This document shows positions 5,009 through 61,361 of a stretch of 64,000 nt of DNA, piece after piece. Positions within the stretch are counted from its first letter, which is position 1. Each line of letters begins with the position of its first letter. A program made the position numbers and the translations under genes. The notes under the pieces were generated by a model. That model was not told the DNA's origin. It did not search any database and saw only the letters and a program-made list of their open reading frames with translations. Origin of the DNA: Betaproteobacteria bacterium (lineage in GTDB: Bacteria > Pseudomonadota > Gammaproteobacteria > Burkholderiales > SG8-41); assembly GCA_900299145.1 (NCBI GenBank), contig OMIN01000060.1, positions 20,902-84,901 on the forward strand, in the 5' to 3' direction.

Positions 5009-5040
5009 ATAAGTATCTGTTTTTATTGCGATTTTATTTA
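5009..5040 (+). repeat. AT-rich intergenic repeat
   Basis: ATAAGTATCTGTTTTTATTGCGATTTTATTTA, within a 625-bp non-coding gap. Confidence 0.7.
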
Positions 5041-8781: not shown

Positions 8782-8813
8782 CCGCGCGGGCAGACAGCAC
8801 CTGTCCCTAAAAA

Positions 8814-10210: not shown

Positions 10211-10240
10211 CGTAACTATTTGAATTATAACATTTATTTA
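10211..10240 (+). repeat. AT-rich intergenic repeat, degenerate copy
   Basis: CGTAACTATTTGAATTATAACATTTATTTA, between the dctM stop and the kinase gene start. Confidence 0.4.
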
Positions 10241-14077: not shown

Positions 14078-14113
14078 AATGACTATCTGATTTTATTGTA
14101 TTTTTTTATTTTA
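14078..14113 (+). repeat. AT-rich intergenic repeat
   Basis: AATGACTATCTGATTTTATTGTATTTTTTTATTTTA. Confidence 0.65.
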
Positions 14114-18419: not shown

Positions 18420-18432
18420 TTATTTTATCAGC

Positions 18433-19580: not shown

Positions 19581-19619
19581 CGCTTCAATCGCTTCAAACG
19601 GGCTTGGCAGGATTACAGA

Positions 19620-20348
19620 TCACAGATCATGCAGATCGATCAGCAACTGGCGGCTGTGCAGCGTCTGATGCCCCAGATAGTGCCCGATCAGATGCCGCAT
19701 CAGACTTTTGCTCTGCTGCTGCGTAACGGGCGAGGTGTAGTCGTCGGCGTGCATGTCGATCAGGGTTTGACCCAGCAATTCTAACCCGTTTTGTTGCGCG
19801 TCCGGGGGTGCGGGCACCGGGCCGCGGTCGATGATGTAGTGATAACGCCGATTCGGGTGCAAGGGGCGCGCGGCCTCCGCGTCGCGGTCAAGCATGAGGG
19901 CATAGCCCAGCTCGCCAAGCAGGCGTTTTTCAAATTGCCGAAGCACCACGGCCTGATCACCGCCGTCGAGCAGCGCCTGCAGCGTTTGTTCATAGGCATC
20001 GAACAGCGCGTCGTGCGCGTCGTCGCGGTGCAATAGTTTCAACAACAGCTCGTTCAAATAAAAGCCGCAGATCAGCGCACGGCCCGTCAGCAACCGGAAC
20101 GCGCCACGCCATTCCGCCGTGCGCAGCGTCTTCAGATCAGCGCGGCCCGACCAATCCAGGGTTAGCGCATGAAACGGCATCAGCGCGGCGCGCAGTGGCG
20201 AGTGCGGCCGCTTCGCGCCCTTGGCCACCATCGCCACGCGTCCGAATTCGCGCGTGAACACTTCAACGATCAGGCTGGTTTCCTGATACGGATAGCTGTG
20301 CAGCACGTAACCGGGCTGGTCCCTGTGCCGAATACTCTTGGCCGCCAT
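19620..20348 (-). CDS. recO: DNA repair protein RecO
   Basis: Start at the ATG at 20348, downstream of the era stop. The N-terminus PGYVLHSYPYQETSLIVEVFT is typical of RecO, and the era-recO-pdxJ synteny is conserved. Confidence 0.9.
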   Translation of the reverse strand: MAAKSIRHRDQPGYVLHSYPYQETSLIVEVFTREFGRVAMVAKGAKRPHSPLRAALMPFHALTLDWSGRADLKTLRTAEWRGAFRLLTGRALICGFYLNELLLKLLHRDDAHDALFDAYEQTLQALLDGGDQAVVLRQFEKRLLGELGYALMLDRDAEAARPLHPNRRYHYIIDRGPVPAPPDAQQNGLELLGQTLIDMHADDYTSPVTQQQSKSLMRHLIGHYLGHQTLHSRQLLIDLHDL

Positions 20349-31171: not shown

Positions 31172-31204
31172 CGTAACTATCTGTTTTTATTGATATTTTT
31201 ATGA
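31172..31204 (+). repeat. AT-rich intergenic repeat
   Basis: CGTAACTATCTGTTTTTATTGATATTTTTATGA, 4 nt from the ATG of the minus-strand opuB-like gene. Confidence 0.8.
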
Positions 31205-33322: not shown

Positions 33323-33358
33323 GAAAAATTTATCAATAAAAACAAATATTTACAATCG
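33323..33358 (-). repeat. AT-rich intergenic repeat
   Basis: The reverse complement reads CGATTGTAAATATTTGTTTTTATTGATAAATTTTTC, about 10 nt upstream of the Bug gene ATG at 33313. Confidence 0.75.
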
Positions 33359-38800: not shown

Positions 38801-38832
38801 TTTAACTATCTGTTTTTATTGATTTTTTACGA
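38801..38832 (+). repeat. AT-rich intergenic repeat
   Basis: TTTAACTATCTGTTTTTATTGATTTTTTACGA, 12 nt upstream of the capA-like GTG. Confidence 0.8.
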
Positions 38833-44162: not shown

Positions 44163-44200
44163 ATTAAAAAATATTTAATAAAAACGAATACTTATGATAG
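44163..44200 (-). repeat. AT-rich intergenic repeat
   Basis: The reverse complement reads CTATCATAAGTATTCGTTTTTATTAAATATTTTTTAAT. Lies between the vWA gene stop and the SBP gene start. Confidence 0.7.
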
Positions 44201-48014: not shown

Positions 48015-48410
48015 TTACAGGGAAGGCGTCGCCTGATGCGCGAAGCGGTGCTCGCGCAATTGCTGACAATGCGCGCAACGTTTGGCCGTGGGGTATGCGC
48101 TTAGCCGTTCATAGGCAACGTCATCGCTGCAGTCTATGCAAGTCCCGTACACACCTTTTTTAATGCGTTCTTGCGCAGCGTCGATATCACGTAGTTCCGT
48201 CACATGACGATCTACCAGGGCCGCGTCCAGATCAACTAATGATCTGGCAAGTGCCTCGTCTGCCGTATCCGTGACTGAGCCGGCCAAATCACGATAATGT
48301 TGCGACTCCGAGGCCGCCAGTTCATCGCGTATGCGTACCGCCAGTTCGCGCGTGCGGCTCCGAAGCTGCGTGGCCAAGCGTTCAAGTTGTGCCTTACTCA
48401 AATGATTCAT
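48015..48410 (-). CDS. DksA/TraR-family C4 zinc-finger protein
   Basis: Start at the ATG at 48410, preceded by GGAGA. The C-terminus carries CIDCSDDVAYERLSAYPTAKRCAHC (CxxC-N17-CxxC). Confidence 0.8.
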   Translation of the reverse strand: MNHLSKAQLERLATQLRSRTRELAVRIRDELAASESQHYRDLAGSVTDTADEALARSLVDLDAALVDRHVTELRDIDAAQERIKKGVYGTCIDCSDDVAYERLSAYPTAKRCAHCQQLREHRFAHQATPSL

Positions 48411-48437
48411 GACAATTTCTCCCATGGCGTTATTCAG

Positions 48438-48478
48438 ATGCTAGGACTGGCAGCTTGGCGCGGCTTGATTCAGCCCCA
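48438..48478 (-). promoter_or_regulatory. FNR/Anr-type promoter (degenerate box) for the DksA-like gene
   Basis: Plus-strand TTGATtcagCCCCA at 48465-48478, a 21-bp spacer, then TAGCAT on the minus strand (48443-48438). Only one half-site is good. Confidence 0.4.
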
Positions 48479-48500
48479 CCCTCTCCATCTAGCCAACAAT

Positions 48501-48526
48501 GCATTTAAAAACAGATAGTTACAGAG
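48501..48526 (-). repeat. AT-rich intergenic repeat, left half only
   Basis: The reverse complement reads CTCTGTAACTATCTGTTTTTAAATGC. Confidence 0.55.
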
Positions 48527-48705
48527 ATATATCCCTCGGAATCCAAGCAACACACTGCACAATTGATATACGTCGTTTGCGCCAGAGGAATAGCCAGAGC
48601 CAGCGACAGCCGCCTCATCAATGCAGAGGATGGGTACGGCCATGTTTTGGCAAACTGACCAAAGCATTCCGTACAGTGCGAATTTCGGACTCTAAGCGCG
48701 CGGGA

Positions 48706-49095
48706 CTATTCAGCCTCTTCGTACGGCCGCGTGTCCTGTTCAACGCTGCGGCGGCGTCTTGCACCAGCCTGCCGTGCACGGGTTTCACCGCGCCGCACTT
48801 GTGCGTAGTCTTCCAGTTGCCGTATCGCAGCGGCAAAAGCATCGCGCAGTGCCACATAAACGTCTTCGTCGTGGTCGTGATTCGCCACAATTTCCTTGCC
48901 CGGCACCACGATATCCAGTCGCACGGAAAACTGCCGCCCCTGATGTTGATGCCTATGCAACGCCTCGGCCATCACCCTGCACGACGTAATCGGTGAAAAG
49001 TACTGTTCGAGTTTTGCCGCTTTAGCCTGGATATGTTCATCCAGCGCTGTGGAATGCGGCATGCCGCGCACGGTTATCTGAGTGGAAATTGACAT
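48706..49095 (-). CDS. hpf: Ribosome hibernation-promoting factor / RaiA family protein
   Basis: 129 aa. ITVRGMPHSTALDEHIQAKAAKLEQYF and VYVALRDAFAAAIRQLEDY match the sigma-54-modulation/RaiA fold pattern. Confidence 0.8.
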   Translation of the reverse strand: MSISTQITVRGMPHSTALDEHIQAKAAKLEQYFSPITSCRVMAEALHRHQHQGRQFSVRLDIVVPGKEIVANHDHDEDVYVALRDAFAAAIRQLEDYAQVRRGETRARQAGARRRRSVEQDTRPYEEAE

Positions 49096-49128
49096 GTTTC
49101 ATTGTGTCCTGTGATGTGTTCAGCGATC

Positions 49129-49169
49129 ATGCTATGTCATCGCCGGGCCTCGCTATTGATTCACGTCAA
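49129..49169 (-). promoter_or_regulatory. FNR/Anr-type class II promoter for hpf
   Basis: TTGATtcacGTCAA at 49156-49169 (9/10 to TTGAT-N4-ATCAA), a 21-bp spacer, then TAGCAT -10 (49134-49129, minus strand). Box centre is 67 nt from the ATG. Confidence 0.65.
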
Positions 49170-49235
49170 AGCGTCGTAATCAATACGGCGAGTGCTGTCG
49201 TGCTCGTCACCGGATAAACGGCTAAAGCGGCACGG

Positions 49236-49676
49236 TTAGTCTCCTCTCACAAGCAACAAGGGGCATGGCGCAACCCGCACAATGCGTTCGGCGACACTAC
49301 CGATCAACAAACGGCTCACGCCACGCCGTCCATGCGTGCCGGCCACCAGTACATCCGCCTTCCAGTTTTTCGCAAGCTCGGCTATAGTGTCCGCCACGTG
49401 ATAGCCACTGGTGACAATTTCTGGCGACTGCACTTCCGGATCAATGCCCGCCGCGAGCGCGGTCTGGCGCGCCTGTTCCACGGCTTCCCTTGCCAGCTCG
49501 CGAGTCCCCTCGACATACGCCCCCGGAAACTGCCCCGCGCCGTACACAATCACCAGATCAATGACGTGAATGATCGCAAGTTTCGCCTTTTGATCAATGG
49601 CAAGCTGAATTGCCTCTTGCAGACCACGTTTTGAAGTTTCGCTGCCGTCCACGGCAACCATGATGCGCTGATACAT
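49236..49676 (-). CDS. Universal stress protein (UspA family)
   Basis: 146 aa with MYQRIMVAVDGSETS and the ATP-binding type C-terminus VLVAGTHGRRGVSRLLIGSVAERIVRVAPCPLLLV. Confidence 0.9.
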   Translation of the reverse strand: MYQRIMVAVDGSETSKRGLQEAIQLAIDQKAKLAIIHVIDLVIVYGAGQFPGAYVEGTRELAREAVEQARQTALAAGIDPEVQSPEIVTSGYHVADTIAELAKNWKADVLVAGTHGRRGVSRLLIGSVAERIVRVAPCPLLLVRGD

Positions 49677-49709
49677 GAAATCCTCCCGTCACAAAGTGAC
49701 TCGTGCAGA

Positions 49710-49750
49710 CATGCTACTCGTCCCTCGCGGCACGGATTTGACTCACATCA
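49710..49750 (-). promoter_or_regulatory. FNR/Anr-type class II promoter for the USP gene
   Basis: TTGACtcacATCAA at 49737-49750 (9/10), a 21-bp spacer, then TAGCAT (49715-49710, minus strand). Box centre is 67 nt from the ATG. Confidence 0.65.
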
Positions 49751-49879
49751 AAGTGTGAAGCGGCCTCCGAATCCCATACACAACAAGCCCGTGCAAGGCC
49801 GCGCGAAAATTGATCGAGAAATATCCACTGACCGTCCTCGAAGCCAAACGCCCCAGCTCACAAGGCCTGGCGCGAACAT

Positions 49880-49914
49880 CAGTAACTGGCTGTTTTTATT
49901 AATTTTTATCGATA
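49880..49914 (+). repeat. AT-rich intergenic repeat
   Basis: CAGTAACTGGCTGTTTTTATTAATTTTTATCGATA. Confidence 0.65.
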
Positions 49915-49957
49915 TGCCAGCTTCCGAATTACCGGATTCCCCACCCTGCCCGGTCTT

Positions 49958-50407
49958 TCACTTTCGCGCATGGCGCTCGTGAAGTTGTTCGCGCGAAACA
50001 ATATGCGAGATGTCAGTCAATTCCTGTGCGAGCATTTCGAGCAGGTCGTCTATGGCTACGATGCCCGTCAGGCGGTTTTCGGAATCCACGATCGGCATGC
50101 GGCGCACCCCTTTGAGCCGCATCAATTCAATGGTTTCGTATACGCCATGATTTTCAGAAACCGTCACCAGATCCAACGACATGATGTCGCCTGCGGTGAT
50201 GACCTTGGCGTCCAGATCCATGGCAAGGAGCTCCACCACAACGTCGCGATCGGTCAACATGCCGACGGGTACACGATTACCATTTTTTTCCTCAACCACC
50301 ACCAAGCTGCCTACGTGATAGTGACGCATCAGTTTGCATGCCGCCTGCACCGTGACGTCCGGACTGATGTAGACAACCTCTCTGTTGCAGATTTTACCGA
50401 TGGTCAT
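49958..50407 (-). CDS. CBS domain pair protein
   Basis: Start at the ATG at 50407, preceded by AGGAG. Two CBS repeats (HYHVGSLVVV; GVRRMPIVD). Confidence 0.85.
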   Translation of the reverse strand: MTIGKICNREVVYISPDVTVQAACKLMRHYHVGSLVVVEEKNGNRVPVGMLTDRDVVVELLAMDLDAKVITAGDIMSLDLVTVSENHGVYETIELMRLKGVRRMPIVDSENRLTGIVAIDDLLEMLAQELTDISHIVSREQLHERHARK

Positions 50408-50481
50408 GAATCTTCTCCTGTGTATGGGCATCTGCAGAGAGTGCCTGAGGGACATGTTAGTAACGTAGGCCGGTACCCTGG

Positions 50482-50495
50482 TTGATACAAATCAA
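50482..50495. promoter_or_regulatory. Perfect FNR/Anr box TTGATacaaATCAA in the divergent CBS / kinase-like intergenic region
   Basis: 10/10 match. A possible -10 (TAACAT, minus strand, 50459-50454) lies 22 bp away on the CBS side. Confidence 0.6.
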
Positions 50496-50588
50496 CTGGA
50501 GGAATCTCGCAGTTCCGCGTTGAAATGCGGTCCGCTCTGAGCCTCTGAAGCAGCAAGACTCCCTTTGGCACAAGTGGCTTTGTCGGGC

Positions 50589-50602
50589 TTGATGTGGATC
50601 AG
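50589..50602 (+). promoter_or_regulatory. FNR/Anr-type box TTGATgtggATCAG upstream of the kinase-like gene
   Basis: 9/10 match, centred about 41 nt upstream of the annotated ATG at 50637. Confidence 0.45.
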
Positions 50603-50636
50603 CAGCAGGCATCGGAAATTGTTGTAACAAGTATGC

Positions 50637-52283
50637 ATGGCTGCCGCACCTATCGATTCATTAATCACCACACCTTCGGAAGCAGCGTCGGCGACGTCGA
50701 CGTTGCTGGCGGCCCTGCGCGATCCCGCGATTTACCCACATGCCGTGGAACGTATCGAGGTACTGGAAACCCACATTTCCTGGGTGATTTTGACCGGGTT
50801 GTATGCTTACAAGATCAGGAAGCCGGTGAACCTGGAATTTCTTGATTTCCGCACGCTTGAATCGCGGCGGCACGACTGTGAAGAAGAACTGCGCCTGAAT
50901 CGCCGACTTTCACCTGCCCTGTACGCAGGCGTGGCGCCGATTACCGGCGATCCCGCGCATCCGGAGTTCAACGGCGGGGGCCCGGTCATCGAATACGCGG
51001 TGAAGATGCGCGAATTTCCGCAACAGGCGCTGGCAAGCCGCTTGCTGGACAGCAGCGCGCTGAATGCCACCCACTTTGATGCTTTAGCCAAGCGCCTGGC
51101 AGCCTTTCATCTGGAGGCGGGAATTGCAGCCACCGGCTGCCCTTACGGCAGTCCCGAATCGGTCCTAGGGCCAGTGCGCGACAGTTTCGATCAGATCGGA
51201 CGCCTGCTGCCAGATGGCGCAGATCAAGTGCGTCTGGCTGAACTGCGTGCATGGACTGAGCGGGAATACCATGCGCTTTGGTCCCATTTCCGCGTGCGTC
51301 AGGCGCAAGGAAACGTACGCGAATGCCACGGCGACCTGCATCTGGAAAATATCGTGATGCTGGACGGCGCACTGATACCGTTCGACTGCATCGAGTTCAG
51401 CCCAGCGATGCGCTGGATCGACGTCATGAGCGACGTGGCGTTCCTGTTCATGGATCTGACCCATCACGGACGCACCGATTTTGCCTACCGCTTCCTCAAT
51501 GCCTATTTGGATGCCAGCGGCGACTATGCGGGGCTGGCCGTGCTGCGCTTTTACCGCGTTTATCGCGCGATGGTTCGCGCCAAGATAAGTGCCATACGCT
51601 CATGGCAAGGCAGTGGCAGCGCTAAGGATTGCAAGCTGAAAGCAACCCGCGACTACATCGATCTCGCTGGCCGCTTCGCCCGGGATGGACAAGCCGCGAT
51701 GGTTCTGATGCACGGACTCTCAGGTTCCGGCAAAAGCCAGCTCGCGCAATACCTCTCAGACCATTTGGGCGCTGTCCAGTTGCGTTCCGACCGCGAGCGC
51801 AAACGGCTATGCGGTCTGGCCCCCATGGCTAGCAGTGATTCACCACCCGCCGCTGGCATTTATTCCGCCAACCTGACCGAGGCAACCTACCATCGATTGC
51901 TTGATCTCGCACGTCTGTGCTTGGTTGCGGGCCATGTGGCTGTCATCGACGCCACCTGTCTCAAACGCTGGCAGCGTGACCTGTTCCGTCGGGAAGCCAC
52001 CGCACGGGGCATTCCCTTTGTGATTGTTCAAACGACCGCACCTGAGGCCATTTTGCGCGCACGAATCGCCGCGCGTCTGGCGGCTCACGACAATGTTTCG
52101 GAGGCCGACCAGGCAGTACTCACACACCAACTGGCCCAAGTCGAGGCACTAACCCAGGAAGAATTGACACTCACCCTGCCTATTGACACAGCGGGTGGTG
52201 ATGCCGTGAGCTGTGCAATGGCGGCTCTTCCCCGCGTGCGCGCCAGGCTTGCCGAAGAACACATCAAGCCAAAGCCCCAGTAA
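50637..52283 (+). CDS. Bifunctional-type protein: aminoglycoside-phosphotransferase-like kinase fold plus C-terminal P-loop (AAA_33-like) kinase domain
   Basis: 548 aa. The N-terminal half has ETHISWVILTG, YKIRKPV and HGDLHLENIV (APH/protein-kinase-like catalytic loop). The C-terminal half has the Walker A GLSGSGKSQLA. The start codon is uncertain. Confidence 0.75.
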   Translation: MAAAPIDSLITTPSEAASATSTLLAALRDPAIYPHAVERIEVLETHISWVILTGLYAYKIRKPVNLEFLDFRTLESRRHDCEEELRLNRRLSPALYAGVAPITGDPAHPEFNGGGPVIEYAVKMREFPQQALASRLLDSSALNATHFDALAKRLAAFHLEAGIAATGCPYGSPESVLGPVRDSFDQIGRLLPDGADQVRLAELRAWTEREYHALWSHFRVRQAQGNVRECHGDLHLENIVMLDGALIPFDCIEFSPAMRWIDVMSDVAFLFMDLTHHGRTDFAYRFLNAYLDASGDYAGLAVLRFYRVYRAMVRAKISAIRSWQGSGSAKDCKLKATRDYIDLAGRFARDGQAAMVLMHGLSGSGKSQLAQYLSDHLGAVQLRSDRERKRLCGLAPMASSDSPPAAGIYSANLTEATYHRLLDLARLCLVAGHVAVIDATCLKRWQRDLFRREATARGIPFVIVQTTAPEAILRARIAARLAAHDNVSEADQAVLTHQLAQVEALTQEELTLTLPIDTAGGDAVSCAMAALPRVRARLAEEHIKPKPQ

Positions 52284-52313
52284 TTTTTATTTAAAAACAA
52301 ATACTTATATGAG
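52281..52313 (-). repeat. AT-rich intergenic repeat
   Basis: The reverse complement reads CTCATATAAGTATTTGTTTTTAAATAAAAATTA. It starts at the stop codon of the kinase-like gene. Confidence 0.65.
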
Positions 52314-52370
52314 TCACCGCTCCATACGCCGCAAGCAGACCGGCGCAACCGATTAATAGTGGAGGTCAAC

Positions 52371-53489
52371 GTGCTAATTGGCGTACCCAGGGAAATCAAG
52401 ACACAGGAATTTCGGGTCGGCATGACGCCATCGGCCGCACGCGAAGCCGTGGCGCACGGCCACCACGTGCTGATTGAAACCCAGGCGGGAGCTGGCATAG
52501 GCGCCAGCGACAACGACTATCGCAACGCTGGCGCCGAAGTGGCGAACAGCGCGGACGAGGTGTTTGCGAAAGCCGAACTGATGGTCAAGGTCAAAGAGCC
52601 TCAGGCCGTCGAGCGCCGCATGCTGCGCGAAAATCAGGTGCTGTTTACCTACTTGCATCTGGCGCCCGACCCGGAGCAAACACGCGACCTGATGAATAGT
52701 GGCGCCATCTGTATCGCCTATGAAACTGTCACCGCAGTTGGCGGCAGGCTACCGCTGCTTGCCCCGATGAGCGAAGTGGCGGGCCGCATGTCGATTCAAT
52801 GCGGGGCGCACTGCCTCGAAAAAAGCACCGGCGGCATGGGCGCCCTACTCGGCGGCATACCGGGCGTCGCCCCAGCACGCGTGGTCATCCTTGGCGCGGG
52901 CACTGTGGGTACTCACGCAGCACAAATGGCTGTGGGCACGGGCGCGCAGGTCGTGGTCATCGACAAATCGCTGGAGGCGTTGCGGCACATCGACGCGGCA
53001 TTCAACGGCCGCGTAATGACCGTGTTCAGCAATCGGGACAATATCGAACGCGAAGTATCGCGGGCCGATCTGGTGGTCAGTGGGGTGCTGATTCCCGGCG
53101 GCGCCGCGCCCAAACTCATTTCAAGAGCAACGCTGTCGAAGATGAAGCCCGGCGCGGTCATCGTAGACGTGGCCATCGATCAGGGCGGCAGCGTCGAAAC
53201 CAGCCGCCCCACCACGCATGCCGATCCGACTTACGTCGTTGACCGCGTTGTGCATTACATGGTCACCAACATGCCCGGCGCCGTACCCCGCACGTCAACG
53301 TATGGGTTAAACAACGCCACGTTGCCGTTCACGCTGGCCATTGCGGACAAGGGCTGGCGCAAGGCGTTACGCGACGATCCACATTTGATGAACGGCCTGA
53401 ACGTAGCAGCTGGCCGCATTACCTGCGAAGCCGTGGCCGGCGCATTGGAACTGGACTACGTGCCGCCGCACACCGTTATTAGGCTGTAG
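52371..53489 (+). CDS. ald: Alanine dehydrogenase
   Basis: GTG at 52371, preceded by GGAGG. VLIGVPREIKTQEFRVGMTP, VVILGAGTVGTHAA and VDVAIDQGG are typical of Ald. Confidence 0.93.
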   Translation: MLIGVPREIKTQEFRVGMTPSAAREAVAHGHHVLIETQAGAGIGASDNDYRNAGAEVANSADEVFAKAELMVKVKEPQAVERRMLRENQVLFTYLHLAPDPEQTRDLMNSGAICIAYETVTAVGGRLPLLAPMSEVAGRMSIQCGAHCLEKSTGGMGALLGGIPGVAPARVVILGAGTVGTHAAQMAVGTGAQVVVIDKSLEALRHIDAAFNGRVMTVFSNRDNIEREVSRADLVVSGVLIPGGAAPKLISRATLSKMKPGAVIVDVAIDQGGSVETSRPTTHADPTYVVDRVVHYMVTNMPGAVPRTSTYGLNNATLPFTLAIADKGWRKALRDDPHLMNGLNVAAGRITCEAVAGALELDYVPPHTVIRL

Positions 53490-53527
53490 CGTCCCCTCAG
53501 AACACTGCCGTCAAGCTGCTCAACCTG

Positions 53528-54007
53528 CTACCGTTGCGCCAGGTTACGAAGGTAGAGCACAAGATGCCAAATCTGCTCGTCCGAAAAATCCTTCGATGGC
53601 GGCATGGCGGTATCCGGGGATCCATTCTGAATGATCCAGAACAACTGGCCGTCCGGAATCCCGTTCACGGTTTCTTTGCAGGCAAAATTGCGCGGGGGCG
53701 GACTATACTGGCTGGCCAGCGCGCCTTTGCCGTCACCCCGTACACCGTGACAGATGGCACAAGGCAGTGTCTTGGACTTTCCGTTGTATAACCGCTCTCC
53801 CGTCGCCAGGGATTCGGTTGTGGCGGAGAGTGGGTTGCTGCGGGCGAGATAGTCGGGTGGAGCCTTCCCGGTAAACCGCGGCTGCGGACATTCGCCGATG
53901 GGCGGCAGCCGGCTCTGAGCGGATGCAAAATTGTTTCCAATAAGCGTGCTCAACGCATAGATGATCAGTGCAATGAGCCAATATCTGCCGTTTCCGGACA
54001 TAATCAT
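53528..54007 (-). CDS. Periplasmic mono-haem c-type cytochrome
   Basis: An in-frame ATG at 54007 (or 54001, which has better RBS spacing) gives a signal/anchor segment. One CxxCH motif (CAICH) and a distal Met region (DTAMPP). Confidence 0.8.
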   Translation of the reverse strand: MIMSGNGRYWLIALIIYALSTLIGNNFASAQSRLPPIGECPQPRFTGKAPPDYLARSNPLSATTESLATGERLYNGKSKTLPCAICHGVRGDGKGALASQYSPPPRNFACKETVNGIPDGQLFWIIQNGSPDTAMPPSKDFSDEQIWHLVLYLRNLAQR

Positions 54008-54088
54008 CTCCTGGAGACCGAACTCACGATTCAGCAACTTGGCCCCCGCCCTTGGCCCGGGGATTGTAGCGAATGAAAATCCGCATAC

Positions 54089-54130
54089 ATCATAGATGTT
54101 GCAGCTGATTCGATAGTTGATATTTGTCAA
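54089..54130 (-). promoter_or_regulatory. FNR/Anr-type promoter for the cytochrome c gene
   Basis: TTGATatttGTCAA at 54117-54130 (9/10), a 22-bp spacer, then TATGAT (54094-54089, minus strand). Confidence 0.55.
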
Positions 54131-54343
54131 CACTGGAGTCTGGATGCTGCAATGGTCTTTTGCCGGCTTTCGGCTCGTGATTTCAGAGAAGCAACTGCAG
54201 CGATTCGCCTTGTTTGGACGCAAAGCGCGCCTTCTGACGGCAACCTGCAAACTGTCCAGTACGCGTTCGGCGCATACGCCGCCCAGCTCATCAGGATTGG
54301 ATAACTTGGCACAGAAATCGCATCTAATGGGATCGCATCGAGT

Positions 54344-54805
54344 TCATTGCTCTACCGGAAAAGCCGCTGCTTTCCACGCTTCCAATCCACCTGCCAAACT
54401 GCGCACATTGGTATATCCAGCCAAACGCAATACCATAAGGGCAATCGCCCCACGATGTCCCGAACGGCAATACACCATGATCGGCGTAGCACGGTCCTGT
54501 GGAAGAGTACCGATCAGCTGCGCGATCTGCCTTACAGGGATATTACGTGCAGTTGCAATGCGTTCACTCCTGTATTCGGCGGCCTCACGCACATCCAGTA
54601 ACAGCACCCCGCCACTGGCGACCTGCTGGCGGGCGACTGCCGGCCGTACCGTGAAATAATCGTCGGGCATTTCCGCCAGGACCCGTGCCGCGGCCGTGGC
54701 CGCCGGAACATTCATCCAATCCTGCGCAAACGCTGTCTGCAACCCCGCGACAGCAATCAATCCCGGCAATAGGGCACGTATAAGTAATTGCTGAACGCTA
54801 CGCAT
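54344..54805 (-). CDS. Rhodanese-domain sulfurtransferase-like protein, secreted
   Basis: Start at the ATG at 54805, preceded by GGAG. Signal peptide, then LLLDVREAAEY and the active-site loop YCRSGHRG. Confidence 0.85.
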   Translation of the reverse strand: MRSVQQLLIRALLPGLIAVAGLQTAFAQDWMNVPAATAAARVLAEMPDDYFTVRPAVARQQVASGGVLLLDVREAAEYRSERIATARNIPVRQIAQLIGTLPQDRATPIMVYCRSGHRGAIALMVLRLAGYTNVRSLAGGLEAWKAAAFPVEQ

Positions 54806-54883
54806 GGCGATTCTCCAGCTTCCGGCTTGGCCTCGCGCCTTACTCAGGCGAGCCCAATGCAATCATGTCACAGCCATACTTGT

Positions 54884-55009
54884 TCACGGCTTCGATGCAT
54901 GCGCGCGAATGTCATCGTTCAGATAACCCTGCCGGTAATGTATGCCGGTTACACCCTCGCGCCAGCTACCGTTTTTCAACAGGAACTTGCGTTCGATTTC
55001 CTGGCCCAT
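54884..55009 (-). pseudogene. Remnant of a CYTH-domain (triphosphate tunnel metalloenzyme) gene: 41 codons only
   Basis: AGGAG RBS plus ATG at 55009 gives MGQEIERKFLLKNGSWREGVTGIHYRQGYLNDD. This carries the CYTH ExExK signature and the conserved RQGYL, then stops. Only 78 nt remain before the rhodanese gene. Confidence 0.45.
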
Positions 55010-55032
55010 TTAAATCTCCTTGCGCTATCGCC

Positions 55033-55073
55033 ATGCTATGGGCGATCTCAATGAAGCGCTTGATGCAGATCAA
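55033..55073 (-). promoter_or_regulatory. FNR/Anr-type class II promoter for the CYTH remnant and rhodanese gene
   Basis: Perfect TTGATgcagATCAA at 55060-55073, a 21-bp spacer, then TAGCAT (55038-55033, minus strand). Confidence 0.65.
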
Positions 55074-55167
55074 CTTCAGGGCCGAAAAAATCTGATCAAA
55101 ATGACAACTGGGAATTAAGCGCAATAACCCGCGAGGCCCCCTCATCCTAGCTGTTTTAACTAACCCC

Positions 55168-55209
55168 GTTACAAACCGTTACAACCGGTTACAAGCGCGC
55201 CCGTTGCAA
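55168..55209 (+). repeat. Phased direct repeats GTTACAA x3 (10-bp period) plus GTTGCAA
   Basis: GTTACAA at 55168, 55178 and 55188, and GTTGCAA at 55203, in the 520-bp intergenic region between the rhodanese side and the small secreted-protein gene. Confidence 0.6.
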
Positions 55210-55291
55210 GCACGCCATGCGCCCTGATCTGCCATCAGGACAAGGACGAGCGTTCAGGTTTGATCAGGACATAGCGGGTACCCAACTGATT

Positions 55292-55317
55292 GAACTTGCG
55301 TGCCCGCCAGGGTCAAA
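55292..55317 (+). promoter_or_regulatory. Candidate sigma-E-type promoter GAACTT-N15-TCAAA
   Basis: GAACTT at 55292-55297 and TCAAA at 55313-55317, 67 nt upstream of the ATG of the small secreted-protein gene. Confidence 0.4.
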
Positions 55318-55383
55318 CGTAGGGTGTCCGAGTGGCATGCCCATCGCGGACAAGGCGCATTTTTAAACTTAAAGGAGATCGAG

Positions 55384-55686
55384 ATGATGAAAAGACTGTT
55401 GTTGGGGGCGACGTTTGCATCTGCTGTGCTGGCCAGTACGCAATTGCTGGCCGATCCGGCAGATCATCGCCATGGACAGAATGCCCCGTGCACGGGTGCA
55501 AACTGCCCGTCGGTAGCCGCAGCCGGAGAACATGGCCAGCATGGCATGGGCCGCGGCGGCATGCGTGGTCGAATGCAAGCCATGCGTGGGGAGCACGAGG
55601 GTAAGGGCGCCCGCGGCATGCGGCACGATCCGCAAGGCAAAGCAGGGGAAGGCTGTCCGATGCACAGCGAACGTAAGCCCAGTTGA
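55384..55686 (+). CDS. Small secreted His/Met/Gly/Arg-rich protein (possible metal-binding or envelope-stress protein)
   Basis: AAAGGAG RBS plus ATG at 55384. Signal peptide MMKRLLLGATFASAVLAS, then a low-complexity region (HGQHGMGRGGMRGRMQAMRGEHEGKGARGMRHD). A good terminator follows. Confidence 0.6.
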   Translation: MMKRLLLGATFASAVLASTQLLADPADHRHGQNAPCTGANCPSVAAAGEHGQHGMGRGGMRGRMQAMRGEHEGKGARGMRHDPQGKAGEGCPMHSERKPS

Positions 55687-55708
55687 TCCGCTGCACTGTT
55701 GTTGAAGC

Positions 55709-55740
55709 GCCGGCAGCCGCAAGGCCGCCGGCACTTTTTT
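55709..55740 (+). terminator. Rho-independent terminator
   Basis: GC-rich stem 55709-55718 / 55723-55732 with one mismatch and a GCAA tetraloop, followed by CAC plus T6 (55735-55740). Confidence 0.6.
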
Positions 55741-55766
55741 CGGGCAGTGATTGGATCTCAGCGGAT

Positions 55767-55805
55767 CATTTAAAAATATCAATTAAAACAAATACTTACA
55801 AAAAA
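55767..55805 (-). repeat. AT-rich intergenic repeat
   Basis: The reverse complement reads TTTTTTGTAAGTATTTGTTTTAATTGATATTTTTAAATG. Lies between convergent genes. Confidence 0.75.
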
Positions 55806-55826
55806 CCTTTTCGCCCTTCAGTCGCC

Positions 55827-58325
55827 TCAACGCGAGCTAGCCGCCCGCCACCGGCGTCCAAGGCATCTCGCGGTTTCGATGGCCACCACACCGCCGGCGC
55901 CAACCGCGATCGCAAGCACGAGGTCCTCAGCAGATAGCGCTTCAAAACGAAAAATCGCTGCCGCCGGCATGACGTACAACGAAGTCGCCAGCGCGGCCAG
56001 CGTAACCAGCACGATCCACCACAGTGCGGGATTCGGCCTGGCGAATATCGCCTTGGAAGACTGCTCGGCAGACCGGTTCAGAATAATCAACGCCAGATTG
56101 CCGAACACAATCGCCGTAAAGGCAAACGCGCGCGCCACACCTTCACTGCGCCCAAGCGCGAGCACCCAGTCGTAGCCGACGGCCACTGCGATCAGCACTG
56201 CTACTCCCGTCCACAGACTATCGCCAACCATATGGCGGTCGAACAGGGGACGCCGGGGATCTCGCGGTGGTTGCAGCATGGCGTCGGCGTCGCCCGCTTC
56301 CGCCTCAAACACAATCGAACAGGCGGGATCGATGATGAACTCCAGAAACACCACGTGCACCGGAAACAACACCGGTGGCCAACCCAAAGCCAGCGGCAGA
56401 AACGCCATGCCCACCGTAGGCACATGCACGGAAATGATGTAGCGCATGGCATTTCGGATATTGCGGTATATCCGGCGCCCCAGACGAACAGTAGAAACGA
56501 TAGAACCGAAGTCGTCGTTGAGCAACACCAGCGCCGACGACTCGCGCGCCACATCTGTGCCGCGCCGGCCCATGGCCACGCCGATATGCGCCGCCTTCAA
56601 CGCCGGCGCATCGTTAACCCCGTCACCTGTCATGGCCACGACCTCGCCAGCAGCCTTATAAGCCATCACCAGCCGCAGTTTCTGCTCTGGCGTGACGCGC
56701 GCGTACACTTGCACGCGCGCTGCTGCTTGAACCAGTTCGGCATCGGTCATCACAGCCATGTCACGGCCGGTGATGGCGCCCGCGCTGACATCAAAGCCGG
56801 CCTGGCGCGCGATGGCCAACGCTGTGCCTGGGTGATCACCGGTAATCATCACGACACGAATGCCCGCTCGCCGGCATTCGGACACCGCCGCCGGCACAGA
56901 GGCGCGCAGCGGGTCGGCCAATGCCACAAAACCCAACCAGCGAAAGGCATAACCTGCGGGATCAGGCAGCCAAGGCGCGTTGTTCCACCGGGCTTCAGCC
57001 ACGGCAAGCAGGCGCAATCCGCGCCCCGCGGCGAGCGCTACCTGTTCCATCGCGGTAGAGCGCGCACCCGCGTCCAGACCGCACAACGCCAGCACGGTTT
57101 CGGGCGCGCCCTTGATCGCCACGCGGCTTTCGCCCTGTGGTGATCGCCAGCCATGGCAAATCGCCAGAAATCCGGGATGCAACGGGTAGTCCACCGCCAG
57201 ATGCCATTCCCTCCTGACACGCCCCGCGTGAGGCGCGACGCTTTCAGCCGTTGCCAAAATCGCCCGCTCCATGGGATCGAAAGGATCCAATTCACAAGCC
57301 AATGCTGCCGCGTCCAGCAACGCCGCAGCCTGCCCGCCGGATTTCATCCACGCGCCATCGCAATACACTTCGGCAACCTGCATGCGGTTTTCCGTCAGCG
57401 TGCCGGTCTTGTCCACGCAAAGAACGGTCGTCGCGCCCAGCATTTCCACGGCCGGTATGCGCCGGGTCAACACACCCTGTCGTCCAATGCGCCATGCACC
57501 CAGCGCCAGAAATACCGTCAGCACCAGAGGAAACTCTTCGGGCAAGGTCGCCATCGCCAGCGTGAGGCCGGCCAGAATGCCCGCCAACCAATCCCCGCGC
57601 AGCAGCGCGTAGTACACCGCAAGCACGATGCACCATGTCACCGCCAGTGCGGCGATAAGCCGTACCACGCGGGCAGTCTCGATCTGCAGCGCTGTCTTCC
57701 CGGCATCGATGGACGCCAGTGATACGCCTATCCGGCCCATCTGCGTATGGCTGCCCGTAGCGGTCACTTCCGCGCGGCCCTGCCCCTGAATCACCAGGGT
57801 GCCGGAAAAGACCTGGACGTCCCGGCCTTCCGGCAAGCCTGTTGATACGGCCTGCTTTTCAACCGGTATCGACTCGCCGGTAAGCAACGATTCATCCACC
57901 CGCAAACCCGTTGCCGACAGCAATCGCGCATCGGCTGGCACACGGTCACCTTCGGACAGAATCAGCAGATCGCCCCGCACTGTCTGGGCGCCCGCAATGC
58001 GTTGCGCCAAGCCGTCCCGTATGACGTGCGCGCGCGGACTGGAAAGATCGCGCAGGGCTTCAAGGGCCCGTTCACTTTTGCGCTCCTGAATCACGGTAAT
58101 GGCCATTACCACCAGTACCGATACCCCCAGCACCAACGCCTCGTGCACATCGCCCAGCAGCAGATAAATGCCGGCAGCCCCCGCAAGCAGCAGCAACATT
58201 GGCTCGCGCACCACTTCGATGGCAATAGCCAGCGTGTTGCGCGGGCGGGCGGCTGGCAGCGCGTTGGGGCCGTCAAGCGCCAGCCGCCGCTGCGCCTCGG
58301 CGCTGGTCAAACCCACCATGGTCAC
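55827..58325 (-). CDS. Cation-transporting P-type ATPase (P2-type, Ca2+/Mg2+-ATPase-like)
   Basis: 832 aa with an N-terminal cation-ATPase domain, TGES, the phosphorylation site CVDKTGTLTEN, MITGDH and GDGVNDAPALK. Confidence 0.95.
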   Translation of the reverse strand: MTMVGLTSAEAQRRLALDGPNALPAARPRNTLAIAIEVVREPMLLLLAGAAGIYLLLGDVHEALVLGVSVLVVMAITVIQERKSERALEALRDLSSPRAHVIRDGLAQRIAGAQTVRGDLLILSEGDRVPADARLLSATGLRVDESLLTGESIPVEKQAVSTGLPEGRDVQVFSGTLVIQGQGRAEVTATGSHTQMGRIGVSLASIDAGKTALQIETARVVRLIAALAVTWCIVLAVYYALLRGDWLAGILAGLTLAMATLPEEFPLVLTVFLALGAWRIGRQGVLTRRIPAVEMLGATTVLCVDKTGTLTENRMQVAEVYCDGAWMKSGGQAAALLDAAALACELDPFDPMERAILATAESVAPHAGRVRREWHLAVDYPLHPGFLAICHGWRSPQGESRVAIKGAPETVLALCGLDAGARSTAMEQVALAAGRGLRLLAVAEARWNNAPWLPDPAGYAFRWLGFVALADPLRASVPAAVSECRRAGIRVVMITGDHPGTALAIARQAGFDVSAGAITGRDMAVMTDAELVQAAARVQVYARVTPEQKLRLVMAYKAAGEVVAMTGDGVNDAPALKAAHIGVAMGRRGTDVARESSALVLLNDDFGSIVSTVRLGRRIYRNIRNAMRYIISVHVPTVGMAFLPLALGWPPVLFPVHVVFLEFIIDPACSIVFEAEAGDADAMLQPPRDPRRPLFDRHMVGDSLWTGVAVLIAVAVGYDWVLALGRSEGVARAFAFTAIVFGNLALIILNRSAEQSSKAIFARPNPALWWIVLVTLAALATSLYVMPAAAIFRFEALSAEDLVLAIAVGAGGVVAIETARCLGRRWRAASSR

Positions 58326-58368
58326 GTTGCCCTGCCCTTACCTGGGGAACGGCATTGCAGCGCACAAC

Positions 58369-58617
58369 TCACGAGGAATCAGCGCATCGAAACAAAGCCG
58401 AGATTTCCGCCTGGGCGTTTTCCAGATCTTCCTCGCAGGCATCTCCCGGCTGAATGTGATGGTATCGATCCGCGCAGTAATACGCCGGGACATCAGCGAG
58501 GTCCATCTCGTCGCTGCTGTCCCATTCGGGAATCTGTGTCGAGTAAGCGGCTACGGGCTGAACCAGCCCGGCCCTGGTAATCCGTGATTTCGTCTTGCCA
58601 GAAGGTTGGGGGCGCAT
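58369..58617 (-). CDS. Hypothetical small acidic protein upstream of the P-type ATPase
   Basis: The in-frame ATG at 58617 has a GGAG 7 nt upstream and lies about 70 nt downstream of an FNR-type box. 82 aa, no recognised family. Confidence 0.4.
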   Translation of the reverse strand: MRPQPSGKTKSRITRAGLVQPVAAYSTQIPEWDSSDEMDLADVPAYYCADRYHHIQPGDACEEDLENAQAEISALFRCADSS

Positions 58618-58652
58618 CGAAGTCTCCGCGTTGACGGGAATGTCCTGATTGC

Positions 58653-58693
58653 ATGCTAGGCAAGCACCGCCGGCGGGTATTGACACAGATCAA
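58653..58693 (-). promoter_or_regulatory. FNR/Anr-type class II promoter for the small protein and P-type ATPase
   Basis: TTGACacagATCAA at 58680-58693 (9/10), a 21-bp spacer, then TAGCAT (58658-58653, minus strand). Confidence 0.65.
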
Positions 58694-58823
58694 TCATACC
58701 AGCGGCGGCGCGAAGCGCCAGGTCGATTGGTCGAGATCAACACTGAAGGCATAGCAGAAGGCTTGAAATGAAAGAACCGGGTGTAGTTGTCACGCGGTTA
58801 TGCGATTCTCACTACTGCCTGGA

Positions 58824-60368
58824 TCACGATGCCTCCCTTTGTCCGGTGCCAAAGGCCGGGATGACCGCCTCGATCCGGGTCCCCTCGGCCGCGGAGCTGC
58901 TGACCACCAGATCACCGCCCAGCACATGGGCGCGCTCAAGCATACCAAGCAGGCCAAACGCGCGCGCCTTGCGCGTGTCTGCTTCGCTAAAACCGCCGCC
59001 GTTATCGACGATACGCGCCACCACGTTGCCACCGCGGCGCAGCACTTCAACCCCCACGTGATCCGCACCCGAATGCCGCGACACATTGGTCAATGCTTCC
59101 TGCACGATGCGAAAGATGGCAGTAGCGGCATCGCCGCCCACACCAAGATTTTCGTCGGGAATATCCAGATCGACGGGGATGCCGCTGCGTTCCGTAAAAG
59201 TCTGGATCAGCCATTCGAGCGTGGGCACCAATCCCAGATTATCGAGCATCACCGGCCGCAGATCGGCGGCAATTCGCCGCACGGACGCCACGGTAGTATC
59301 GATGAGTTGCTTCATGCCGTCGATACGTTTTACCAGTGATTCCCGCGCCGAACCAGGATTCAGATTCAGCTCGGCCTCGATCGCGGCGACATCCATCTTG
59401 AGCGCGGTCAGCACCTGCCCCAGTTCATCATGCAACTCACGCGCGATGCGGGCTTTTTCTTCTTCGCGTATGGTTTGCAGTGCGAAAGACAATTCCCGTA
59501 GCCTGTCCTGCGATTCGCGCGCCTGCGCTTCAGCCCGCCGATGCACTCGCAACAGATGGTGCAATTCTGCTTCCATGCGCAGGCGCTCGGTGATATCACG
59601 ATAGATGGCAGAAACACCTGCCACCGAACCGTCGCTGCGCTTGACCGGCGAGATTGTAACTTCGACGTCGACTTCGCTGCCGTCCTTGCGTTGGCGCCTG
59701 GTTTGACGCTTGATGATGGCCTCGCCGCGCATCGCGCGATCGCCCAGGCCAATCTGATCCGAAGGGACAGTGGCCGAATACAGCAGGCTGACGTCGCGGC
59801 CCAATACTGCTTCCGGCTCGTAGCCAAACATCCGTGCCGCCGCCCGATTCCAGGACAATATGGCGCCGTCAGCACGCCGGCTTACTATCGCGTCGGAAGA
59901 CGAGTCTATTATGTCAGACTGAAAGCGCATTTTTTCCTGAATGCGTGTGCGCTGAGTGACATCACGCAAAATTGCGGTATAAAACACGCGGCCTGAGCAT
60001 TCTGTGCACGAAATCACGGCATCAACCGGGAATTCTTCACCGTCGGCACGCAAACCCGTCACTATCCGATCGCCATCCATGGCGCGGACCGAATTGGCTG
60101 ACGCTTGGGCGAAATCCACCATGTGCCGCCAGTGCGCCGCGCGAGCGCGCGTGGGAATGAACCTCTCCAGCGGCCCGCCGATGGCCTGTGCCGCATGGCA
60201 GCGAAACATCGCTTCCGCCTCGCGGTTAAACGACACTATGGTTTGCGTTTCATCGACGGTAATTATCGCCAACTTCACCGATTGAACGATCGCCGCCAGC
60301 TGTGCTTCCTGCAACGCCGTCACGCGTACGCTGTTGGCCACTGGCGGCTCCGGCACACCTGCAGTCAT
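58824..60368 (-). CDS. Cytoplasmic PAS-PAS sensor histidine kinase (HisKA_3/NarX-type dimerisation domain)
   Basis: 514 aa with two PAS modules, the H-box ARELHDELGQVLTALK and an HATPase_c domain (DNGGGF, GLLGMLERA). No TM segments. No response regulator gene in the window. Confidence 0.9.
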   Translation of the reverse strand: MTAGVPEPPVANSVRVTALQEAQLAAIVQSVKLAIITVDETQTIVSFNREAEAMFRCHAAQAIGGPLERFIPTRARAAHWRHMVDFAQASANSVRAMDGDRIVTGLRADGEEFPVDAVISCTECSGRVFYTAILRDVTQRTRIQEKMRFQSDIIDSSSDAIVSRRADGAILSWNRAAARMFGYEPEAVLGRDVSLLYSATVPSDQIGLGDRAMRGEAIIKRQTRRQRKDGSEVDVEVTISPVKRSDGSVAGVSAIYRDITERLRMEAELHHLLRVHRRAEAQARESQDRLRELSFALQTIREEEKARIARELHDELGQVLTALKMDVAAIEAELNLNPGSARESLVKRIDGMKQLIDTTVASVRRIAADLRPVMLDNLGLVPTLEWLIQTFTERSGIPVDLDIPDENLGVGGDAATAIFRIVQEALTNVSRHSGADHVGVEVLRRGGNVVARIVDNGGGFSEADTRKARAFGLLGMLERAHVLGGDLVVSSSAAEGTRIEAVIPAFGTGQREAS

Positions 60369-60370
60369 GG

Positions 60371-60404
60371 CATAAAAAATATCAATTAAAACAGATAGTT
60401 AGAC
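60371..60404 (-). repeat. AT-rich intergenic repeat
   Basis: The reverse complement reads GTCTAACTATCTGTTTTAATTGATATTTTTTATG, ending 2 nt before the histidine kinase ATG. Confidence 0.8.
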
Positions 60405-60562
60405 TATTAACCCTATTACACCCAGCGCCACAAAATCCCTATCAGTAAATCTTGGGTTCACTATCCATGGCAACACTGGCATACAGACAAATGCGTTGCC
60501 ACGGCCAGAAATTTGAGAGTTCACCATGAACAACTCATTGCTACATCACACAAGCAACGCCG

Positions 60563-61090
60563 CTATTTGGGTGCGCCGTCACTGGCCATGATCTGCTGCC
60601 TCAACGTCAACTGGTTCAGCATGGATGCCGTGAATGCCGCATAAAGAAAATATTTCATCACTTTACCCAGCAGTACTGAAATGAACACATGGGATAGCGG
60701 CATGCCCAACAAGGCGCATACGATCAGCACCGGGGTCTGGCTCACGGGAAGGCTCGCGAAGGCTATCAGCACCACAAATCCGAAGTGTTCCACCCAGCGC
60801 AAACCGGCCGCCCACTCGCCCGAGCGGACCATGCCGGGCATCAGTCCGGCGATGGCTTGCGTGCCATATTCCGCGACCAGCCATGCTAAGAGAGTTGCGC
60901 CAAGCGCACTGCCGATGGCACAACTGAATGCCACGCGCACCCATTGTCGCCGTTGCAGCGCAACCAGCGCGCACAGGGCTGGCACAAAGGCCACCACCAG
61001 CAAAGTCGCGGCAAACGCCAACGCGGCAGAGGCCAGCGGAAACAAAGGCCGATTGGCCAACTGCGAAACCCTTGTGACCACGCCAGCCAT
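60563..61090 (-). CDS. Integral membrane protein (YqaA/DedA-VTT-like, tentative)
   Basis: Start at the ATG at 61090. About 175 aa with several hydrophobic segments. Family assignment is tentative. Confidence 0.5.
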   Translation of the reverse strand: MAGVVTRVSQLANRPLFPLASAALAFAATLLVVAFVPALCALVALQRRQWVRVAFSCAIGSALGATLLAWLVAEYGTQAIAGLMPGMVRSGEWAAGLRWVEHFGFVVLIAFASLPVSQTPVLIVCALLGMPLSHVFISVLLGKVMKYFLYAAFTASMLNQLTLRQQIMASDGAPK

Positions 61091-61179
61091 GTAATCGGCC
61101 ACGGCACATATCCTCAGTAGGTAGAGCCCTCTTTGAATCCTGCAACTGCCCTTTGAATGGGCCTGATTCCTTGCGCGCC

Positions 61180-61219
61180 AGTGTATGCCCCCGGAGCCAC
61201 GCTCCATTGACACAGATCA
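61180..61219 (-). promoter_or_regulatory. FNR/Anr-type box upstream of the membrane-protein gene
   Basis: TTGACacagATCAA at 61206-61219, identical to the ATPase box. A possible -10 (TACACT, 61185-61180, minus strand) lies 20 bp away. Confidence 0.5.
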
Positions 61220-61361
61220 ACAGGGTACCGCGCGCGGAAAAAACCATTGTGCTTGATGCCGCTACGCGGAAAACAGCACGTCTAAGGCCTGAGTCGAGAG
61301 CCACGTGAAGTCCGCCCGGATTTCACCGGCTGAATCGCTCGACACGCGCGTCCACGCAAAG

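Follow-up and report, generated by a model that had tools for sequence, protein, structure and literature searches.

Minus-strand promoters within a 64,000-nucleotide stretch of contig OMIN01000060.1 from an uncultured betaproteobacterium (hereafter the window) combine a 14-bp FNR-type box, a spacer of exactly 21 bp (N21) and the same non-consensus −10 hexamer, TAGCAT. The question raised by this locus is why promoters of unrelated genes should agree in box, spacing and hexamer. A first-pass annotation of the window counted five such promoters and offered two answers: strict dependence on an activator, or duplication of a promoter module within a genomic island. We consider it very probable (roughly 85%) that these five sites, like three or more others within the same 13 kb, are sigma-70-type promoters of a low-oxygen regulon and depend on a class II activator, and that the TAGCAT shared by the five has been selected rather than duplicated.

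FNR-type boxes and −10 hexamers in the window

We searched the window for the composite TTGANNNNNNTCAA-N21-TAGCAT and found four exact matches, all on the minus strand, where 100 shuffles of the window gave an expectation of 0.00. These lie upstream of hpf (49169-49129), of usp (49751-49711), of a CYTH-like remnant and rhodanese gene (55073-55033) and of an 82-amino-acid open reading frame (ORF) and P-type ATPase gene (58693-58653). At hpf, the box TTGACGTGAATCAA (49156-49169) is followed by TAGCAT at 49129-49134, with a predicted transcription start near 49121 and the ATG at 49095. At usp, the box TTGATGTGAGTCAA (49738-49751) and the hexamer (49711-49716) predict a start near 49703-49704, ahead of the ATG at 49676. 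The corresponding elements are TTGATCTGCATCAA (55060-55073) and TAGCAT at 55033-55038 for the CYTH-like ORF and rhodanese gene (predicted start near 55025), and TTGATCTGTGTCAA (58680-58693) and TAGCAT at 58653-58658 for the 82-amino-acid ORF and type II P-type ATPase gene (predicted start near 58645).

The fifth promoter, that of a dksA/TraR-like gene (ATG at 48410), has TAGCAT in the expected place (48438-48443, predicted start near 48430) at N21 from a degenerate box, TGGGGCTGAATCAA (48465-48478), of which the proximal ATCAA half alone is intact. The count of five thus stands in full for four promoters, and in spacing and hexamer for the fifth. Positions previously assigned to the hpf, rhodanese and ATPase sites were right, and those at usp were off by one base. 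The hpf and usp boxes are indeed near-identical, differing at 2 of 14 positions; they had also both been placed 67 nt from their start codons, but the distance from box centre to the A of the ATG is 67.5 nt for hpf and 68.5 nt for usp. The centre-to-centre distance of 31 bp between box and hexamer is correct.

We identified three further perfect intergenic boxes on the minus strand, missed in the first-pass annotation, that have a TAnnnT hexamer at N21 or N22. They belong to the promoters of a CBS-domain gene (50454-50495; box 50495-50482, N22, TAACAT at 50459-50454), a cytochrome c gene (54089-54130; box 54130-54117, N22, TATGAT at 54094-54089) and a VTT/DedA-family gene (61180-61220; box 61220-61207, N21, TACACT at 61185-61180). 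TAGCAT is therefore the hexamer at five of eight window promoters, against a background of 2.0% among TAnnnT hexamers (P = 1.8e-7). The window holds 11 copies of TAGCAT on its two strands, five of them in these promoters.

The pairing of box and hexamer follows the genes. TAnnnT stands at N21 or N22 on the gene side of all seven intergenic perfect boxes and of the dksA-like half box, and at N21 of none of the three perfect boxes that lie inside genes (12745, 43452 and 50112). Boxes with at most one mismatch number 41 in the window, where 17 are expected, and crowd at 48-61 kb; eight or nine boxes between 48.4 and 61.2 kb stand ahead of nearly all transcription units there.

Each pair of box and hexamer is found upstream of a Shine-Dalgarno-bearing gene start, with predicted 5′ untranslated regions of 17-28 nt, and a purine occupies the eighth nucleotide past the hexamer in four of the five TAGCAT promoters. 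Judged by the proxy of TAnnnT 21-22 bp past the box (eight of eight intergenic cases), the box centre lies at about −40.5 to −41.5 relative to the predicted starts; the N21 geometry implies −40.5, or else transcription starting 7 nt past the hexamer. A consensus scan of the minus strand returned no sigma-70 −35/−10 pair upstream of any of these genes, and inspection shows the junction of box and spacer at the position 17 bp upstream of TAGCAT (AAtagc at hpf, for example). TAGCAT itself retains T1, A2, A5 and T6 of TATAAT with G-C in the middle, and we assume that it acts as a weak −10 element.

To place this geometry in context, we compared loci from other genomes: 59 around homologues of a window gene for an AAA_33/APH protein (from species-level genomes) and 59 around hpf homologues (from metagenomes). 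These foreign loci yielded 241 distinct, oriented perfect boxes. A TAnnnT hexamer follows 40 of them at N21 and 34 at N22, and each other offset from 10 to 34 has 0-6 cases. Box-N21/22-TAnnnT is the generic architecture of such promoters, and the rigid spacing that had been singled out as special is an instance of it. In E. coli, 19 of 23 promoters that FNR activates directly have their site at −41.5 ± 4, mostly at −40.5 to −42.5 (PMC3688515).

Three observations concern the boxes themselves. Read toward the gene, T-G occupies central positions 7-8 in seven of eight boxes (those at 48465, 49156, 49738, 50482, 55060, 58680 and 61207, with central tetramers GTGA, GTGA, CTGC, CTGT, CTGT, TTGT and CTGA); the N6 centre is therefore not free in this genome, and the central T-G is less clear in relatives. 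The ATPase-operon box is preceded, 47 bp upstream, by a second box with one mismatch, TTGATCTCGACCAA (58727-58740, minus strand), and the operon may possess tandem activator sites at about −41 and −88. On the plus strand, a candidate one-mismatch box, TTGATGTGGATCAG (50589-50602), precedes the AAA_33/APH and alanine dehydrogenase genes with no good TAnnnT (GTAACA/TAACAA). This arrangement (50589-50640) would put the start at or beside the annotated ATG at 50637, so either the mRNA would be leaderless or the true start codon would lie further downstream; in other species, the orthologous AAA_33/APH genes show both a leader and a normal box-N21/22-TAnnnT.

TAGCAT in related betaproteobacteria

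Generic spacing leaves the uniformity of the hexamer to be explained. TAGCAT is the commonest hexamer in the foreign loci (9 of 74), and a close clade of ten loci, in which hpf or usp is 70-88% identical to the window gene at the protein level, uses it in 9 of 22 N21 promoters and 1 of 11 N22 promoters (background among TAnnnT 1.9%, P = 3e-10). Across the clade this amounts to an enrichment of ~20-fold over background and to ~40% of the promoters of the regulon. One relative (L134) has three box-N21-TAGCAT promoters, those of usp, hpf and hsp20, within 20 kb. In all, we found 23 distinct promoters with box-N21/22-TAGCAT.

We next compared orthologous promoters. In five hpf promoters (the window, L070, L071, L128 and L134), the invariant blocks are limited to TTGA..ATCAA of the box, CATAGCAT and the start codon; the spacer has diverged. 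Among eight usp-family promoters, the invariant columns are restricted to the box halves and the T, A and A of the hexamer (TA..A). The full TAGCAT at usp is kept in the window, L129 (87% identity), L130 (79%), L134 (76%) and L133, and usp orthologues at 76-78% identity carry TAGGAT (L132), TAGTAT (L135) or TACAGT (L136). The gene neighbourhoods of usp and hpf differ between species. An Rfam scan of the window gave 0 matches, so the conserved blocks are not explained by a riboswitch or small RNA. This evidence of conservation covers hpf and usp; the dksA-like, rhodanese, small-ORF and ATPase promoters have too few close matches in the 128 loci examined. Contigs from the same species (L060-L069) are 99.93-99.98% identical to the window and are uninformative on whether polymorphism spares box or hexamer.

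These comparisons suggest that TAGCAT is the preferred −10 element of the regulon in this betaproteobacterial clade and is under purifying selection at orthologous promoters. Its over-representation points to selection on the full hexamer. TAGCAT appears to be old and maintained, drifting slowly as an ordinary −10 would, and the regulon makes use of a wide variety of TAnnnT hexamers at its other promoters. In the literature searched, we found nothing relevant that ties TAGCAT to FNR, Anr, FixK, Dnr, FnrL or Btr, and no report of comparable uniformity of a −10 hexamer. The one feature for which we found no precedent is that a whole clade favours a single non-consensus −10 hexamer, in an otherwise textbook architecture; we regard it as a genuine but modest curiosity, a refinement and not a new mechanism.

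The distance at which TAGCAT sits also varies with lineage. In more distant betaproteobacterial loci (L017, L021, L022, L027, L038 and L044), it is found at N22 in 6 of 31 cases and at N21 in 0 of 35, whereas the close clade (L070, L071, L128-L135 and the window) prefers N21 for it, in the proportions given above. The preferred distance from box to TAGCAT thus appears to have shifted by one base between lineages.

The proposed activator and alternative explanations

What would read these promoters? We propose that an oxygen-responsive dimer of the CRP/FNR family (FNR/Anr-like, and possibly downstream of a FixLJ-type kinase) would bind TTGAT-N4-ATCAA under oxygen limitation, its box centred ~40.5-41.5 bp upstream of the start in place of a −35 element. 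The bound regulator would recruit and activate RNA polymerase, which would read only the TAnnnT hexamer 21-22 bp past the box, open the promoter at TAGCAT and start transcription 7 nt downstream. Most likely, TAGCAT is too weak to serve without the activator even with its four consensus bases and, with no −35 element to assist it, the genes would be silent until the activator is present. The activator dependence proposed in the first-pass annotation is supported by the placement of each box and hexamer shortly upstream of a gene start, the lack of sigma-70 −35/−10 pairs, the conservation of box and hexamer, and the Fnr-type regulators of relatives.

These regulators are encoded beside usp. One relative (L130) has the gene order fixL-fixJ-crp/fnr-usp (17115-20304) and another (L129) has crp/fnr-usp. 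Both CRP/FNR proteins, of 274-276 amino acids, have C-X2-C-X5-C near the N-terminus, a central cysteine and an ETVSR recognition helix (E--SR). Against the NCBIfam Fnr model, the L130 protein scores 236 bits, above the cut-off of 228, and the L129 protein falls just below it with 226.4; their FixK scores are far lower (120 and 111 bits, respectively). The likely activator in the window genome is accordingly an Fe-S sensor of the FNR/Anr type, whose transcription FixLJ may control.

Several points weigh against our interpretation. Among the ~65 ORFs of the 64-kb window there is no CRP/FNR-family transcription factor, so the regulator is extrapolated from relatives; the sole related protein is a 120-amino-acid cNMP-binding protein with no helix-turn-helix or other DNA-binding domain, located beside a Ser/Thr kinase. 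The box by itself does not separate FNR/Anr from paralogues of the FixK, Dnr or NnrR type, and both the transcription starts and the oxygen response are predictions from sequence. The dksA-like promoter, with its half box, may not depend on the regulator. The TAGCAT counts come partly from orthologous promoters and are not fully independent. Finally, G-C-A of the hexamer is retained while spacers drift, which means that activator dependence alone is not a full account of the exact sequence.

The first of these points leaves room for a different regulator. A FixK-type protein (a CRP/FNR protein with no Fe-S cluster) could act at these boxes, its level set by FixLJ and oxygen sensed by the haem-PAS kinase. 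A FixL-like PAS/HisKA_3 kinase is encoded inside the cluster (58824-60368), fixL-fixJ lies directly upstream of the CRP/FNR gene in relatives, and FixK and FNR boxes are indistinguishable. We nonetheless regard this as unlikely: the CRP/FNR proteins beside fixLJ or usp in relatives bear FNR-type cysteine ligands and score as Fnr, and no response regulator adjoins the window kinase. In this genome, the kinase's partner response regulator and the fnr gene must both be located elsewhere, beyond the window. A cascade from FixLJ to fnr to the regulon is possible, and would be compatible with both models.

The last point, retention of the full hexamer, raises the possibility of a reader other than the housekeeping sigma factor. 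The reader of TAGCAT, working jointly with the FNR-type activator, might be an alternative sigma factor for stress or stationary phase, or else a second protein bound over the −10 region. The full hexamer, beyond T1, A2 and T6, is kept at orthologous promoters whose spacers are scrambled, the ~20-fold enrichment extends across the clade, usp, hpf, hsp20 and the dksA-like gene have typical stationary-phase functions, and no paper in the literature searched links TAGCAT with FNR, Anr or FixK. Against this, the hexamer's flanks have none of the expected signatures. The bases preceding the five TAGCAT copies are c, a, g, a and c, at odds with a sigma-S-type −13C (C directly precedes the hexamer in 29 of 74 related promoters); the preceding trinucleotides are tcc, aca, gag, cca and gcc, none of which is an extended −10 TGn; and no extra conserved bases flank the hexamer across non-orthologous promoters. 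In addition, distant usp orthologues drift to TAGGAT, TAGTAT and TACAGT, as an ordinary −10 element would, and the same regulon uses many other TAnnnT hexamers. We consider such a second reader quite improbable.

A related and doubtful proposition is that the exact TAGCAT is a functional requirement, its G-C-A read by a holoenzyme variant or accessory factor. Candidate readers are a stress sigma factor and, through an effect on how stable the open complex is, the co-regulated DksA-like protein. If true, these promoters would form a distinct 'hibernation' class in which a specialised −10 element is paired with an FNR box at −41.5.

Ordinary class II activation of a selected hexamer, our preferred reading, must also be set against descent from a common cassette. 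Under that explanation, copies of a single box-spacer-TAGCAT unit came to precede several island genes, and the hexamer was inherited rather than selected. Five promoters within 10 kb do share hexamer and spacing, the ATPase-operon and VTT/DedA boxes are identical 14-mers, and usp genes form a paralogous, often tandem family with which some promoters could have spread. The flanking DNA argues otherwise: mean pairwise identity is 0.27 for spacers, 0.21 for upstream and 0.28 for downstream sequence, where shuffled spacers give 0.28 ± 0.03. The promoters stand before unrelated genes, and the box is the one repeat family that covers them. In other species and other neighbourhoods, orthologous hpf and usp promoters already carry box-N21-TAGCAT, so any duplication would be ancient and the hexamer since kept by selection. 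Random flank identity and the orthologous promoters lead us to reject recent duplication within the island, and inheritance from a copied cassette in general seems very unlikely.

Chance might also have brought palindromes and TAGCAT together in intergenic DNA that is richer in AT. Nothing speaks for this beyond a slightly lower G+C at 47-51 kb; its probability is negligible and it is refuted by the shuffles (4 composites found where 0 are expected, 41 boxes with at most one mismatch where 17 are), the sharp offset profile and the conservation across species.

The gene cluster and its counterparts

The promoters serve two blocks of minus-strand genes (48015-50407 and 53528-61096), which we named using Pfam and NCBIfam. 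Together these genes would make up a regulon for persistence at low oxygen. Predicted members are a universal stress protein (USP; Usp, 49236-49676), a ribosome hibernation factor (HPF, 48706-49095), a DksA-like RNA polymerase-binding protein (dksA/TraR-type zinc finger, 48015-48410), a protein with a CBS pair (49958-50407) and a rhodanese (54344-54805). A cytochrome c (53528-54001), the type II P-type ATPase (55827-58319) behind the 82-amino-acid ORF (58369-58617) and a VTT/DedA-like protein (60563-61096) would also belong. On the plus strand between the blocks, the kinase-like AAA_33+APH protein (50637-52283) and alanine dehydrogenase (52359-53489) are probable members; the nearest species-level homologues of the former, at ~50-62% identity, are from Casimicrobiaceae and unclassified betaproteobacterial metagenome-assembled genomes. 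The FixL-like kinase gene (58824-60368, minus strand) has no box of its own.

The remainder of the window is ordinary chromosome, with uvrC, recO, era, lepA, rpoE-rseA and many TctC/Bug receptors, the last typical for Burkholderiales-like betaproteobacteria. No integrase or transposase was seen in the window and the dip in G+C is mild, so the supposed island is better read as a regulon cluster.

Some details of the cluster and its surroundings deserve mention. The 55073 promoter is followed by a 41-codon ORF (54883-55008, minus strand) that begins MGQEIERKFLL and stops early. It has no Pfam match even at E ≤ 1, so the label of CYTH remnant is tentative and based solely on the EIERKFLL motif, which resembles the N-terminal EXEXK motif of CYTH domains. 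This promoter probably serves the rhodanese gene, 80 nt downstream of the ORF. On the plus strand, 55387-55686 encodes a secreted-looking protein of 99 amino acids with a signal peptide and then a His/Met/Gly/Arg-rich tail (HGMGRGGMRGRMQAMRGEHEGKGARGMRH). It has no Pfam family and overlaps minus-strand ORFs (55313-55782), and gene callers disagree on the strand of this locus between otherwise identical contigs (137 amino acids on one strand, 99 on the other). Elsewhere, 6692-10123 encodes a NIT-domain protein and HAMP-MCP pair, followed by the 120-amino-acid cNMP-binding protein, which overlaps the end of the Ser/Thr protein kinase gene.

We also observed a separate AT-rich intergenic motif of ~30 nt, with a consensus of roughly ATAAAAAATATCAATAAAAACAGATAGTTA and the core TAAAAACARATASTTA. 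A search for it gave 16 matches where 0.21 are expected, 14 of them intergenic and two weak and intragenic. Copies lie at 129-144, 5010-5025, 10213-10228, 14080-14095, 18387-18402, 31174-31189, 33337-33352, 38803-38818, 44179-44194, 48506-48521, 49883-49898, 52292-52307, 55783-55798 and 60386-60401, in both orientations and mostly between genes or just past stop codons. The motif is present in close-clade loci (L071 and L128-L136) and in 0 of ~115 more distant ones; it could be an uptake-signal-like, nucleoid-protein or termination-related element.

The promoters and gene set of the cluster resemble several known systems. Class II FNR/Anr promoters (narG, dmsA and nirB of E. coli, and usp promoters under Anr in Pseudomonas) share with the window the box TTGAT-N4-ATCAA, a single TAnnnT −10 and usp targets, and their box lies at about −41.5 in place of the −35 element, as is predicted for the window; P. 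aeruginosa USPs are mentioned as being under Anr control in PMC3721108, which cites Trunk et al. 2010. The window differs from these in its mostly N21 spacing, in TAGCAT at five of eight promoters (~40% in the close clade) and in the location of the regulator gene outside the window. FixLJ-FixK regulons of alpha- and betaproteobacteria have in common with it a FixL-like haem-PAS/HisKA_3 kinase and a FixK box equal to the FNR box; they are set apart by the FNR cysteine cluster and Fnr scores of the relatives' CRP/FNR proteins, and by the lack of a response regulator next to the window kinase.

Of the known systems, the lxa locus of Burkholderia cenocepacia comes closest, and the window cluster appears, by analogy, to be of that kind. 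The lxa locus comprises 50 genes, with 17 copies of TGA-N6-TCA between them (Sass et al. 2013, PMC3721108); among its products are USPs, a P-type ATPase that transports cations, sensor kinases of two-component systems and Anr-like regulators (PMC3721108). Its induction by low oxygen has been shown by experiment, it is needed for anoxic survival, and control by an Anr-like CRP-family protein has been proposed (PMC3721108). Both are betaproteobacterial clusters with an inverted repeat (4 bp, 6 bp apart) in most intergenic regions, and with USPs, an ATPase, kinases and functions in stress and persistence. The window cluster is smaller, at ~13 kb and ~12 genes, carries HPF, the DksA-like protein, rhodanese and AAA_33/APH, and includes no regulator gene. 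The likeness lies in gene content and motif, and low-oxygen induction of the window genes is presumed. Our literature search found no transcription-start data for lxa promoters in B. cenocepacia.

A likeness of physiology is seen with the DosR dormancy regulon of mycobacteria: the window cluster parallels it in USPs, HPF as a ribosome hibernation factor, a CBS protein, a type II P-type ATPase, alanine dehydrogenase and the AAA_33/APH protein, to which relatives (L134 and L135) add alpha-crystallin/HSP20 and a second GroEL. The likeness ends there: both the DosR regulator, which is a response regulator of the NarL family, and the motif that it binds differ wholly from those considered here. The 48-61 kb cluster, along with L134 and L135, and the DosR regulon may represent convergent assembly of a gene set for hypoxic persistence.

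These results would place about a dozen genes of an uncultured betaproteobacterium in one oxygen-limitation regulon, with predicted transcription starts near 48430, 49121, 49703, 55025 and 58645. HPF, the DksA-like protein and USPs seem to be under the direct control of a sensor of the FNR type, and the TAGCAT promoters offer a natural case for how −10 sequence tunes activator dependence at class II promoters.

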